A stretch of DNA of 64,000 bases, from IMG/VR virus record IMGVR_UViG_3300042940_001100, positions 58,321-122,320 of that record. One strand, 5' to 3'. Shown here piece by piece: positions 56,928-60,316 of this stretch. This DNA is from a virus. The position numbers and the translations under genes were made by a program. Numbering within the stretch: the stretch's first letter is position 1; the number at the start of each line of letters is the position of its first letter. Below the pieces are notes generated by a model. That model made no database searches. It saw nothing but the letters and a program-made list of their open reading frames with translations, and was not told the origin of the DNA.

Positions 56928-56961
56928 TTGAGTTGTTTTTTGGGTTAATAATATAAAAGTC

Positions 56962-57301
56962 ACTCAGTAAGAAAGTTGAATAGACCAAGATAAAAGTAAA
57001 ACTAAAGGCAAAGACCTCCCTCTGCGTTCAAAGGCTAAGATAAAATCTAAGTCTTAATTGTATCCTCACAGAGTTATGACCTGGGCCCGTGGGCCATTCA
57101 GGTAACTCTGTTTGTATGAGGTGCTGCCAGTTTTCCCCATAGGGTAACCTGTCAAGCTTTGGTACTTTTTATACTAAAAGCCCTACAAAAAAGGTGATTT
57201 TAAGTTGCAGAAGAAGCGGTTTGTGCACCCTAAGGTGCGTTTAGTTTATATCTATTAAAAGTAGATTTTTATCATAAGTTTTAGTAACCTTCTTACCAAG
57301 T
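56962..57301 (-). ncRNA. Large structured ncRNA (340 nt) with tandem hexamer tracts
   Basis: 16-bp closing helix (57286-57301 with 56962-56977), 10-bp inner long-range helix (57207-57216 with 57016-57025), several hairpins, G-U pairs only on the minus strand, no ORF. Confidence 0.8.
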
Positions 57302-57442
57302 ATAAAGCATAAAGAATCAGGCTTATGCCCTATCTTTTCTGCACCCTTTGAATTTCTGATAGCTGTATGAGGAGTGGCATGATCGTACTCACATGAAGAA
57401 AGCTTGCCTCTGCTCTCACACTATATTTAATTTTATTGTAGT

Positions 57443-57469
57443 GTAGCCCGGATACCATAACCGGGCTAC
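57443..57469 (-). other. GC-rich hairpin just after the 306-aa gene (no U-tract)
   Basis: GTAGCCCGG-N9-CCGGGCTAC, followed on the minus strand by ACUACAAUAAAA, so unlikely to terminate. Confidence 0.6.
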
Positions 57470-57475
57470 GTAGTA

Positions 57476-58396
57476 CTAAGACTCAGGATCTAACTTCTTT
57501 AAGAAGTTGTCAATGGTATCCTGAAATCTAGGGTCAATAGAGATTCTCAAAGCAGCCGTGCTTTGTATCTCTGCTTGACGTGCAGCCTCAAACTCCTCAC
57601 GCTCCACCTTCACAAGCTCTAAATATGTAAGATACACATTCGTGTAATCAAGTCTCAATTTCTCATTGAGCTTGTTTACTTCAGCTTGTCCAAGAGCATT
57701 CTCCTTAGAGATGCGGGCATTCTCTTCAGTTACTAAGTTTTTAACCTTAGCTTTGAAGTAATTTACCCTTTGCTCATGAGTACGGTGTAAGCTGGCCAGC
57801 TTCTCATGATGAGCTAATAGCTCTTCAGGAGTATGGTGAACTTCTACCTTTACAGGTGTGCGTTCTCCATCTCTCACAGTTATCCAGTCTAATGACTTAA
57901 CCTTAGGCAACTCATTGCGTAAAGTGTCAAGAACTGAATCCTTATGAATAAACTGACCTATGTGAGAAGCGTAAGCTTCCTGCTCAAGGAACTCTGCGTA
58001 CTCAGCTTGGCTAAGCTGATCCCATCCCCACTGCTCCTGTACTAGGAGTGTAGGTTTGAATGCATTCATAGTTGGATTCTCTGGAGCATCCGTTGAAGGC
58101 ACAAACTGCCTACTTTTGATCTCTCCTAATAACCCGTCCTTGGCTTTGATGTTAGTCATCAAGAAAGCCTGAGCTGCGTGCAGTTTTGCCTTCTCTTGAA
58201 GAAGAGCTGCTAACTCTTTTGGTACCGGTTTACCTGCTACATGAACATAAGTTTCACCACTTATCTTCAATGTACGGTGAGCATTGTTAATACCTGACAA
58301 TGCTTGTGATATCATATTTGCTCTTTGAAAGCATAGGTTTGATATACTGCTAGCTTGTGATAAGCTTAAACCTGTTGTTGCGAGATTATGTCTCAT
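57476..58396 (-). CDS. Alpha-helical/coiled-coil protein (306 aa) linked to the downstream ncRNA
   Basis: Long ORF with higher GC than its neighbours; GLSLSQASSISNLC and EAYASHIGQFIH motifs; heptad-rich C-half; no catalytic motif recognised. Confidence 0.8.
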   Translation of the reverse strand: MRHNLATTGLSLSQASSISNLCFQRANMISQALSGINNAHRTLKISGETYVHVAGKPVPKELAALLQEKAKLHAAQAFLMTNIKAKDGLLGEIKSRQFVPSTDAPENPTMNAFKPTLLVQEQWGWDQLSQAEYAEFLEQEAYASHIGQFIHKDSVLDTLRNELPKVKSLDWITVRDGERTPVKVEVHHTPEELLAHHEKLASLHRTHEQRVNYFKAKVKNLVTEENARISKENALGQAEVNKLNEKLRLDYTNVYLTYLELVKVEREEFEAARQAEIQSTAALRISIDPRFQDTIDNFLKKLDPES

Positions 58397-58541
58397 AAAT
58401 GTGGGTATGGTTGCTTGCTACCAAAAAGTTTTAAGTTTGAATTGATTGTTGAGTTGATTATACCCTTTAGGTAGAGAAGCTCTAAGCCTCTCCACCACGG
58501 TTGAATGTACCGGTGAGTTCTTACGAATGAAGTATACTCAC

Positions 58542-58616
58542 AAAACCTTATGCATTGCATATAAGCCTAAGCTTATTTCATCCCCTATAGGAATCATCAG
58601 TGCAATTTAAAACTTT
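58542..58616 (-). ncRNA. Type I hammerhead ribozyme
   Basis: Minus strand AUUGCA-CUGAUGA-U-UCCU-AUAG-GGGA-U-GAA-AUAAGC-UUAG-GCUUAU-A-UGCAAU: complete core, stems I-III, cleavage triplet AUA; atypical U-U at 10.1-11.1. Confidence 0.8.
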
Positions 58617-58931
58617 AGTAGTTTAAATGTTTAAAGTTTAACTATTCTACAGTCCCCGTTTGTATATCTGTAGATTTATTGGGTAATAGTTAATGTTATA
58701 ATGCGCTTGCCTACAGGAGGTACCTGTAGACTAGATTGTTGAGGCACGCGTTCTTTCCACCAGGGCCTAGGAGTCTTACCTCCTCTTGAAGTCAATCTTA
58801 AAATGGCCGGCTGATTCTACCGTGATTCCACCTGGATTCTTTTATTATACTCAGTTCAAGGAATAAACCTTTAATCCACTGAGTATTGCTTTATAGTGTA
58901 GCAATAAACACTTGACACCGCTGTCAAAGTC

Positions 58932-59016
58932 ATAATAGTCCATAGTGTTTAGCCCTCAAGCCCCTGGGTTTCCCCTACGACTTCTTCTCAGCATGCACTA
59001 TGGTCTATTATTAAAT
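58932..59016 (-). ncRNA. Scaffold RNA repeat, copy A
   Basis: AUAAUAGACCAUAGUG-CAUGC [36 nt, GGG-GAAA-CCC] GGC-UAAA-CACUAUGGACUAUUAU. Confidence 0.7.
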
Positions 59017-59171
59017 AAGTATGCAAAAAGGATAAAAAGGCGAGACTTCTTATATTACTGCCCAACTGAGGGGACTTACAACTATTTGCAAGATTTTAAA
59101 TAAGTATTGGTAGGTAAACTGTTTATGGTCACTTATTGTTTATCTTCAGTAGGTAATGTTTTAAATGTGTT

Positions 59172-59270
59172 ATAATAGTCCATAGTGTTTAGCCTCACCT
59201 ACGATTCTGGTTAGTAGTTTCCCACAGCAGGTAGGGAGTCATTGGCATGCACTATGGTCTATTATTAAAT
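59172..59270 (-). ncRNA. Scaffold RNA repeat, copy B
   Basis: Arms identical to copy A (23 and 26 nt) around a different 50-nt interior (CCUAC/GUAGG, GUGG-GAAA-CUAC). Confidence 0.7.
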
Positions 59271-59392
59271 GAGTTCGTCCCTCTATAGGTCATATAGAAT
59301 AGGACTTGTATATTCCATAGGTGACTAACCCTACTTCTATATACCATTCGCTTCTTAAATGAGGCCCAGTCTAAGCACATCTGGGAAAGCTT

Positions 59393-60316
59393 TTAATCTT
59401 TTATTCTTTCGAGTTTATAGCCACTTTTGTATCTATTCTTTTTATCTAGTCTAAGATATATAATTTCTTCTCCGCTTCTAAGATATCTTGTAATAGTATC
59501 TGCAGAGAACATCTTACGTAATTCTTTATCCTTGGAGTTTTTGAAGAGTAATACCTCACCTGTTTTACAATTAGTAGCTTTGATCTGACCAAGATTGGTT
59601 CCGCTCTTTAGAGATCGGAACTCTTTCTCAGGAATAATACATTCAGCCTCTGTACATCCCTTCTCTATTCTCTTTACAACAGCATGGTGTTGTACATCAT
59701 AATTCTTAGAGACATATCTAGCAAACTCTTCTACATTAGTAAATCCTTTCCCATCTAGGGTATACTTTATCCTTTCTTTCTCTTGTCTATTGGCTATGAT
59801 TTCATTTCTTAATCTCTGCAAGGTTTTAGGTCCAAATCTTGTTATACCTTGAAGCTTGCCGTATTCCCTTACATAAAAGTCTCCAATGGTGTCACGTTGA
59901 TTCTTTGCATAAGAATCGTGTAATGTACTATTACAATCTTTACAGGTATTAGAAATACCTAGATACTCAGATTTATGCTTAGGAAAATGTGAATGTAAAG
60001 GTTTTGTCTCTTTACATACAGTGCATCTTCTAAAACCTTTCTTAGCTATCTTAAAGGCAAATCTCTGCTTACCTATTTCAATAACTCCTCTATTTTTAAG
60101 TCTACAATCTCTACATTTACAATCTCTTCTCTTGTATTTTTTGTCTTTAAGATAAAACTCTATAATATCTTGCTCTTTAAAACATTGGTTACATATCTTA
60201 GTCTCTTTAGTATATTTCTTCTTTTTAGACTTAATCCTTAGTTTCTTCTGATCAAGAGACATCATAGAAGGCTTTAGATCTTTATTCTTGGGCCATTGTT
60301 CTTGTGTATATATCAT
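59393..60316 (-). CDS. Multi-zinc-ribbon DNA-binding protein related to homing endonucleases
   Basis: Two CxxC...F...CxxC units (CNQC/CRDC, CTVC/CKDC) and a NUMOD1-like C-terminus; no clear HNH active site seen. Confidence 0.6.
   Translation of the reverse strand: MIYTQEQWPKNKDLKPSMMSLDQKKLRIKSKKKKYTKETKICNQCFKEQDIIEFYLKDKKYKRRDCKCRDCRLKNRGVIEIGKQRFAFKIAKKGFRRCTVCKETKPLHSHFPKHKSEYLGISNTCKDCNSTLHDSYAKNQRDTIGDFYVREYGKLQGITRFGPKTLQRLRNEIIANRQEKERIKYTLDGKGFTNVEEFARYVSKNYDVQHHAVVKRIEKGCTEAECIIPEKEFRSLKSGTNLGQIKATNCKTGEVLLFKNSKDKELRKMFSADTITRYLRSGEEIIYLRLDKKNRYKSGYKLERIKD

Follow-up and report, generated by a model that had tools for sequence, protein, structure and literature searches.

The minus strand of a 64,000-nt stretch of phage DNA (hereafter the window, which comprises positions 58,321 to 122,320 of the IMG/VR virus record IMGVR_UViG_3300042940_001100 and is the right half of that 122,320-base record) carries, ~6 kb from the right end of the record, a gene for a 306-amino-acid (aa) protein that is followed by a structured RNA with two arrays of phased hexamers. 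Read from 58620 to 56950 (window positions are used throughout), this strand presents a hammerhead-like motif, a leader of ~160 nt, the open reading frame (ORF) of the 306-aa protein, a GC hairpin and ~500 nt free of any ORF of at least 40 aa. An earlier note, made from the sequence alone, had proposed a ribonucleoprotein system here, in which the protein would oligomerise on the hexamers of a closed RNA; what it observed is confirmed by our analysis, and its interpretation is, overall, partly supported. Relatives were drawn from a scan of viral contigs, confirmed by tblastn, which gave 80 loci with a relative of the protein at 44-64% identity, and from a scan of metagenomes, which gave 80 further protein-bearing loci with identity of up to 92%. 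These 160 loci form the linkage set, in which the RNA was sought with a profile hidden Markov model (HMM) built from 12 copies, and 71 non-redundant RNA copies form the alignment called A3 (WIN is the window copy and Lnnn are related loci). The gene and the parts of the RNA, all on the minus strand, are as follows.

57476-58396, minus strand: gene for the 306-aa protein (ORF); helices and two beta hairpins in an AlphaFold2 (AF2) model, predicted symmetric homodimer
56957-57349, minus strand: conserved structured non-coding RNA (profile HMM, covariation), 271-422 nt long in the family
57307-57342, minus strand: P1 hairpin with an inner 2-bp helix and a conserved GCAYAAGC tip (covariation)
57287-57302, minus strand: 5' strand of the closing helix P2 (covariation)
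57207-57216, minus strand: 5' strand of helix P3, after a conserved ACCGC (covariation)
57125-57154, minus strand: irregular helix P4, its tip variable and its A-G and G-A mismatches conserved (double changes)
57029-57053, minus strand: tract 1, G and four hexamers N-Y-U-U-U-G, gap-free in 71 sequences
57016-57025, minus strand: 3' strand of P3, between both hexamer tracts (covariation)
56980-57015, minus strand: tract 2, six hexamers with a near-invariant GUCUUUG start and an invariant CUAU end, gap-free in 71 sequences
56961-56976, minus strand: 3' strand of P2, then GACUUUU (covariation)

Positions 57349 to 56957 of the minus strand are a conserved structured RNA that lies outside Rfam 15. 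The element is ~390 nt long in the window, where it is the only copy in its own 122-kb genome, and 114 full-length copies of 271-422 nt were found in relatives; from 5' to 3' it consists of P1, the 5' strand of P2, variable hairpins, ACCGC, the 5' strand of P3, a small hairpin, P4, tract 1, the 3' strand of P3, tract 2 and the 3' strand of P2. RNAalifold on A3 returned 37 pairs, every one with compensatory changes, and all of the 36 pairs that were counted covary across the 71 copies. In these pairs 95.4% of the cells are paired, compared to 70.4% with shuffled columns (none of 500 shuffles was as high) and 42.8-53.2% with the partners slid by 1-3 columns, and the covariation score is 0.836 vs 0.319 shuffled and at most 0.194 slid, controls which are not probabilities, the tested structure having come from the same alignment; the margin over them is large and every helix contributes to it. 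The 16-bp helix that the earlier note had described as closing the RNA (P2, 57302-57287/56976-56961) has changes on both sides in 16 of 16 pairs, with 94.3% of cells paired, and its 10-bp inner helix (P3, 57216-57207/57025-57016) covaries in 9 of 9 counted pairs, with 97.7% of cells paired, so that both helices stand. The length of 340 nt given there was too short, the RNA reaching ~390 nt here with the covarying P1 hairpin (57342-57307), which had been missed; in P1 both partners have changed in each of the 9 + 2 pairs, with 94% and 100% of cells paired, respectively. P4 has three pairs with 17, 24 and 19 double changes, and two of its positions are non-standard in 58/71 and 68/71 copies. The minimum free energy of the window copy is -113.2 kcal/mol (z = -5.0), and none of 100 shuffled sequences folds as well. 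An invariant GGU (57345-57343) might in addition pair with the ACC (57220-57218) of ACCGC, as C to U variants keep a G-U pair there (A3, by eye). A search of the whole 64-kb window against Rfam 15 gave no matches at the gathering scores and nothing relevant between 56300 and 59400 at E<=10, while as a positive control the Rfam search recovered GOLLD, Hatchet, tmRNA and tRNAs elsewhere in related loci.

Conservation within this RNA is highest in the two hexamer tracts, which have blastn matches in more than 35 loci and lengths fixed at 4 + 6 units, without a single gap, in 71/71 sequences. Their location and their phase within each tract are as the earlier note had them, but its consensus of RNYUUW becomes N-Y-U-U-U-G with the register shifted by one, and the information profile over the 71 sequences has a period of 6. 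In tract 2, a U recurs at 6-nt steps in 64-70 of the 71 sequences for hexamers 1-5, and the sixth has an invariant A. Tract 1 and tract 2 are 14 nt apart in the window, as previously stated, but this value is not constant, four lengths being found among the 71 sequences (counts 32, 28, 10 and 1), so phase is kept within each tract and not across both; one continuous register of 12 units over the two tracts was therefore rejected. A coding origin of the 6-nt period was rejected as well, in agreement with the earlier note, since the tracts are without an ORF of at least 40 aa and variation falls on positions 1-2 of each 6 rather than on every third base. A pairing partner for the tracts was looked for and none was found; pairing of an AGAC in tract 1 with a GUCU in tract 2 was rejected because the A is replaced by U in 8/71 sequences and the partner column stays U in 69/71, and thus there is no covariation between the tracts. 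The CAAG of the P1 tip (57321-57328) is complementary to the UUUG units (57053-56980) if G-U pairs are allowed, and as both are invariant this gives no evidence for or against a contact between loop and tract.

Judged from their sequences and positions, the RNA and the 306-aa gene are an almost obligate pair. The profile HMM matched in 148 of the 160 loci that carry the protein gene, and where at least 450 nt of downstream DNA is available the RNA is present in 138/140 loci, usually starting no more than 10 nt past the stop codon; homologous genes are thus followed by the covarying RNA that the earlier note had led us to expect. The reverse scan, in which viral contigs were searched with the tract 2 pattern, gave 117 loci, 74 of them with an HMM-confirmed RNA. 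Seventy of these 74 have the gene upstream and the other four are less than 200 nt from the edge of their locus, which means that every RNA copy with room upstream has the gene (70/70); the remaining 43 loci were chance matches of the pattern with neither RNA nor gene. The gene ends within ~600 nt of the RNA in 69 loci, and in L170, where the RNA match is partial, it is 4,957 nt away. As a control for synteny, ORFs of at least 50 aa were clustered in 41 non-redundant loci with full 3-kb flanks. The 306-aa family is the sole family present in all 41, the next families occurring in 8 and 7 loci, and the one found in 8/41 is an antisense ORF inside the 306-aa gene itself. With one family in 41/41 loci and all others in at most 8/41, the flanks are highly variable and the pair is constant. 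An inserted gene between the two parts is tolerated in L054 (+1470 nt) and L083 (+718 nt).

The region is also represented in RNA libraries, as the earlier expectation of transcription would have it, in contigs that do not resolve the strand. Sixteen DNA runs from lake water contain the stretch, and four metatranscriptome runs contain small parts of it. Two lake RNA runs gave one contig each, of 373 nt (depth 19) on 56967-57338 and of 377 nt (depth 13.9) on 56965-57338, and both map entirely on the element with ~96% identity and no loose ends, which hints that a discrete RNA, close in size to the predicted one, accumulates. On 57092-57278 there is a 221-nt contig from a marine RNA run, and the estuary run X19 has contigs on parts of the protein gene that come from relatives. 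The lake RNA runs X17 and X18 have no contig over the protein gene, and the hammerhead site is uncovered in all four RNA runs, missing cover in either case not being evidence of absence.

The protein encoded by 58396-57476 (minus strand) belongs to no recognisable family or fold. The family is large, as 2409 (clusters) of the 5959 candidates scored were relatives; they come from lake, estuary, marine, sediment and wastewater samples, on phage contigs 100-365 kb in length. Searches of Pfam, PHROGs and NCBIfam gave weak matches far below the cut-offs, PADLOC did not match the protein, and a sequence profile search of the PDB reached E 0.6-0.8 at best; with no significant result from these and none for the RNA from Rfam, the earlier view that both parts fall outside named families is upheld. 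The AF2 model (mean pLDDT 86, pTM 0.79) consists of long helices and two beta hairpins, in keeping with the helical protein anticipated before. Foldseek found nothing in the PDB at E<=0.001, matches in BFVD were limited to an uncharacterised member of the protein's own family, the best result of a wide VIA-align search (Z 7.7) was to generic helical bundles, and the ESM Atlas gave no usable match; no nuclease fold was found among the Foldseek or VIA-align matches. Longer, fused forms of the protein were not found, which is weak evidence. Modelled as two copies, the protein scored 0.54 vs 0.00 for the best of three controls, a score that is reached by 20/30 proteins solved as one-chain pairs and by 1/23 solved as single chains, counts which hold only roughly here as a custom alignment was used. 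The dimer runs agree in at least 94% of contacts, with a partner pLDDT of at least 87. The most conserved segment (residues 204-229, NYFKAKVKN) and a basic patch just outside the listed interface may, on the basis of this model, be a candidate nucleic-acid contact. Invariant or near-invariant histidines (145, 151, 187-188, 197 and 204) are located at or beside the predicted dimer interface, and this set could be a metal site.

Our data suggest a two-part phage module, which would combine a dimeric helical protein of a new family with a structured RNA of ~300-390 nt directly behind its gene, the two forming a ribonucleoprotein. Gene and RNA would be transcribed together, because most relatives leave no room for a separate promoter, and cleavage would then release the RNA from the message's 3' end, the GC hairpin of the window staying behind as the 3' end of the mRNA and the RNA itself ending at or just past the 16-bp closing helix. 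The scaffold P1-P4 would hold the two single-stranded arrays of 4 + 6 N-Y-U-U-U-G hexamers in a fixed geometry, as a multivalent landing strip for a protein surface that binds single strands; the first candidate for the array binder would be the partner protein, and the second would be OB-fold proteins of the host. Since the module is situated in a variable, RNA-gene-rich region near the end of the genome, it would probably act during host takeover or in conflict between phages. A protein-linked RNA of such a size, with exactly 4 + 6 phased U-rich units in a covarying scaffold, points to a defined particle rather than to a loose regulator, and we put the probability of a specific RNA-protein particle at roughly 0.5; that the partner protein would read the hexamers unit by unit is clearly less probable than the particle. 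Described relatives are lacking for protein and RNA alike, literature searches (supplements excluded) found no prior description of the RNA-protein pair, and uncultured phages carry the module widely. Since CRISPR, OMEGA, bridge RNAs and VIPR, new obligate RNA-protein pairs in mobile elements have been worth testing for programmable or host-takeover activity, and this pair, being compact (~1.3 kb), directly expressible and open to pull-down, is immediately testable.

Several results weigh against such a particle. The binding of the protein to the RNA is itself something that we infer, and the fold searches gave no nucleic-acid-binding relative that would lend weight to it. The family is acidic, with a median pI of 5.91 and a median net charge of -6, which is unusual for an RNA coat and speaks against the earlier idea of a protein that coats the RNA. 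The interface predicted for the protein, which was modelled as two copies only, is isologous, the same residues being used in both copies, and would therefore give a closed dimer and not a polar filament or ring, so that one subunit per hexamer, as the earlier note had proposed, is not supported. TRAP, a small beta-sandwich protein, does form an 11-subunit ring on leader RNA, where it binds phased GAG/UAG triplets with a spacing of 5-6 nt and free spacer bases; short, evenly spaced motifs that are conserved and unpaired, as seen in the period-6 profile, are shared with the TRAP sites, but here the protein is a helical 306-aa predicted dimer and the arrays are within a closed scaffold downstream of the gene. 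Two loci, L031 and L045, have enough downstream DNA and yet no detectable RNA. The contigs from the RNA libraries show neither strand, ends nor level of the transcript, the two best of them come from one study, and DNA can occur in RNA libraries. Finally, a U run past the closing helix is seen in only 25/70 copies, and the 3' end of the RNA is explained by it for part of the members only.

The arrays could also serve as a decoy or sponge for host OB-fold proteins (cold-shock proteins, S1 domains), with one domain per hexamer and ~10 of them titrated, while the 306-aa protein would assemble, protect or deliver the RNA. This is suggested by the first unit of tract 2, which is a near-invariant GUCUUUG, the repeating unit being G-N-Y-U-U-U-G. 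The preferred site of CspB from Bacillus subtilis is 5'-GTCTTTG/T-3' (PMC1904285; this and the further sources given by accession or DOI are cited for those of their parts that were available). A cold-shock domain (CSD) has six base-binding subsites, and CspB has been crystallised with GUCUUUA (PMC7825780). Compared to known cold-shock ligands, the best conserved heptamer of the RNA thus equals the published CspB site and the six subsites match the 6-nt step, a footprint of 6-7 nt fitting contiguous hexamers; the phage itself encodes no CSD according to our search, and control genomes, including Bacteroides, do. However, cold-shock domains have limited sequence selectivity (PMC7825780), which makes a match of 7 nt a weak argument and leaves the CspB likeness as a rival reading and not as a finding. 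The repeat number is fixed in all 71 sequences, where sponge RNAs usually vary, the need for an accompanying 306-aa gene is left unexplained, and the search of a genome collection gave no clue to the host. We regard a sponge as unlikely, but as an explanation to be kept in mind when the arrays are considered.

An RNA that begins no more than ~10 nt past the stop codon in most loci may alternatively be a cis-acting element of the 3' untranslated region, namely a stabiliser of the message, a terminator or a regulator, with no function in trans. Consistent with this, a run of at least five T follows the closing helix in 25/70 copies compared to 4% of background windows, so P2 may double as a terminator in part of the family. 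However, a length of 270-420 nt, four or more covarying helices and numerous unpaired yet conserved bases far exceed what a terminator needs, the RNA is kept where it is 718 or 1470 nt away from the gene, and the RNA-library contigs lie on the element alone, which is a weak hint in the same direction. A purely cis-acting role is, in our estimation, improbable.

About as improbable is an RNA that acts without the protein in the manner of GOLLD or ROOL, which are RNA-only assemblies (PMC12286853), the gene then being a fixed neighbour or a folding helper. Like GOLLD (RF02032) and ROOL, the new RNA is a large conserved RNA of uncultured lake phages that is found among tRNA genes, and its surroundings are rich in RNA genes: within 3 kb of the module, tRNA genes are present in 15/40 loci, all on the same strand, Hatchet ribozymes occur in 4/40 loci, and GOLLD, tmRNA and a group I intron were each found once within 3 kb in the same 40 loci. 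The new RNA differs from both in matching no model, in its smaller size, in its U-rich arrays and in its obligate protein neighbour. A pairing with one protein family that is nearly absolute, while the other neighbours change, is hard to reconcile with an RNA that works on its own, and the unpaired U-rich arrays would resemble sites for a protein more than sites for RNA-RNA contacts.

The alternation of fixed and variable bases in the hexamers also brings to mind a guide RNA of the VIPR kind, with gaps in its code, in which the protein would clamp UUUG and the variable dinucleotides would read a nucleic-acid target. The geometry of a Cas7 backbone, which has a 6-nt step per 35-kDa subunit, was counted in favour of such a guide. 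In the strongest form of this idea, the fixed UUUG units would be gripped by copies of the helical protein, and the ten variable dinucleotides would face a conserved sequence of the host or of a rival phage as a gapped reading head; this reading head, a long shot in our view, would if true be an independent, non-RAMP invention and would add to VIPR another family of noncontiguous RNA guides. A test for hypervariability in 26 independent close RNA pairs found differences at 25/520 of the variable repeat positions (4.8%), at 358/5575 of the positions in the rest of the RNA (6.4%) and at 22/1014 of the fixed repeat positions (2.2%). The variable dinucleotides are therefore not hypervariable and drift like weakly constrained sites, which argues against a programmable guide.

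In VIPR RNAs (vrRNAs) GGY alternates with NN, and some VIPR types have arrays interspersed with hammerheads (10.64898/2026.04.26.720920). The likeness extends to a minimal, phage-encoded system of one gene with an adjacent non-coding RNA and ~10 repeats with variable dinucleotides (10.64898/2026.04.26.720920; 10.64898/2026.04.26.720927), and to self-cleaving ribozymes near some members. The VIPR RNAs described there, however, are a tract of ~100 nt with a tail, often several per locus, whereas here a single RNA per genome of 271-422 nt, without an array of copies, forms a large closed scaffold with at least four helices, and its unit is a 6-nt UUUG repeat vs the 5-nt GGY repeat. The VIPR protein is a RAMP (RRM core, G-loop and thumb), in contrast to the acidic protein studied here, which is predicted to be a closed dimer, has no RAMP among the fold matches listed and was not matched by PADLOC. 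In the available parts of a related preprint, repeat periods of 5, 18, 60-79 nt and a few others are given, none of them of 6 nt (10.64898/2026.10.21.760802). The RNA-protein pair is not a member of VIPR, and a guide that follows the VIPR logic with a fixed target is highly improbable.

A type III toxin-antitoxin pair, in which the RNA would neutralise a toxic protein as in the RNA-neutralised effector of the earlier note, would share the tight link of a protein gene with a short-repeat RNA, but it is scarcely credible given that ToxIN carries tandem antitoxin repeats of ~36 nt upstream of the toxin gene, a defining layout that is absent here, where the repeats are 6 nt long, inside a scaffold and downstream of the gene, and that neither a PADLOC match nor a nuclease fold was found.

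Around the module of protein and RNA, the minus strand carries further features, some of which are confined to closer relatives.

58554-58606, minus strand: type I hammerhead, predicted cut 58560/58559, U-U at 10.1-11.1 (core and stems read)
58469-58553, minus strand: leader with three hairpins, GUGAGU/ACUCAC, CGGU/ACCG and GGUGGAGAGGC/GCUUCUCUACC (conserved in relatives)
57443-57469, minus strand: GC hairpin directly past the stop codon, no U run (by eye)
57350-57442, minus strand: clade-specific spacer that separates the RNA from the GC hairpin and contains a small conserved hairpin
57064-57122, minus strand: inserted branched hairpin of the RNA, ACAGAGUUA/UAACUCUGU, CCUG/CAGG and GGCC/GGCC (window's clade and few others, A3)

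Core sequence and stem covariation indicate that the hammerhead, with its cut at 58560/58559 as the earlier note had predicted, is genuine. In the window its order is AUUGCA, CUGAUGA, stem II, GAAA, stem III, UA and UGCAAU, and a strict pattern found five distinct variants (WIN, L082/L083, L085/L086, L090 and L001/L002/L092). CUGAUGA, GAAA and the U-H before the cut are kept in 5/5 variants, stem I is either AUUGCA/UGCAAU or AUUGCC/GGCAAU, an A-U pair being replaced by C-G through changes on both sides, and stems II and III differ in sequence in every variant with pairing always kept (five sequences, by eye). The CUGAUGA..GAAA..UH core, the three stems and the open stem I are those of type I hammerheads (clan CL00010). 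The window copy differs from these in its U-U at 10.1-11.1, which is shared with the L001 type, G10.1-C11.1 being present in the three other variants, and in that Rfam cut-offs are not reached: the Rfam hammerhead models gave no match in the window at E<=10, and L083 scored 21.1 bits with HH9 vs a cut-off of 52. The locus thereby adds hammerhead variants that are missed by current Rfam models. A structural scan found the hammerhead to be unique in the 122-kb genome.

In this phage and some close relatives the hammerhead would cut the transcript ~160 nt ahead of the gene. The module does not always include the hammerhead, which is limited to some closer relatives of the window and is absent in L084 and L087 (82% and 78% protein identity) and in more distant loci, and L001 and L090 have a further ORF between hammerhead and gene; the self-processed transcript of the earlier note is consequently not a trait of the family. 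The leader is kept in WIN, L083, L085, L090 and L001, with compensatory changes by eye (alignment A4). The GC hairpin (57469-57443) was rightly described as non-terminating, no U run following it, and its stems have changed and still pair in L081, L082, L083, L084, L085, L087 and L088, that is, in eight clade members with the window (by eye). The spacer is present in WIN, L081-L085 and L088 and absent in L087 and most of the family, where the RNA instead begins ~10 nt or less past the stop codon. The inserted hairpins of the RNA are present as the earlier note had described them, but as an insertion limited to the window's clade and few others.

With regard to the genomic setting, the gene is no more than ~13 kb from a contig end in 11/16 records of 100-130 kb, its own genome included (hand count), and random placement would give ~3.6 such records in 16. 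This suggests a near-terminal, possibly early-injected region, bearing in mind that contig ends may differ from true genome ends. A blastn search of a phage collection gave no match. A collection of species genomes gave six matches, all in metagenome-assembled bins that carry bacterial labels (Omnitrophota, Paceibacterota, Gammaproteobacteria and unnamed), with no isolate among the six, so they offer no clue to the host; these loci, for example L282 on a 362,763-base contig, are probably of phage origin, their contigs having been binned together with cells. Scans for sigma-70 promoters (7 sites vs 7.3 expected) and for terminators (3 found vs 1.7 expected) were uninformative. ARAGORN found zero tRNA or tmRNA genes in the whole 122,320-base record, unlike many relatives that have tRNA arrays beside the module, where some tRNA genes begin 20-50 nt past the new RNA (L024, L134 and L069).

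The Hatchet ribozymes (L020:2493-2629, L077:1734-1871, L074:1444-1580 and L051:1323-1457) score 73-82 bits (cut-off 51); each is found 0.4-1.5 kb upstream of the homologous gene and shares its strand. Hatchet being found in some loci and the hammerhead in others, self-cleaving ribozymes of different classes lie upstream of the module in different phages. The single GOLLD, tmRNA and group I intron are at L007:5528-5942, L008:5491-5879 and L007:4274-4461, respectively, and the GOLLD of L007 is full-length (306 bits) and ~1.3 kb downstream of the new RNA. Upstream of the window's gene, ~1 kb of the minus strand (58397-59392) has no ORF of at least 60 aa, and a 160-nt contig of the lake RNA run X18 matches 58747-58900 and extends past the end of the compared stretch. 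The next gene upstream (59393-60316, minus strand) encodes a protein of 307 aa, of which residues 92-143 match endonuclease VII, HNH and Lar-like PHROGs (E 1e-8).

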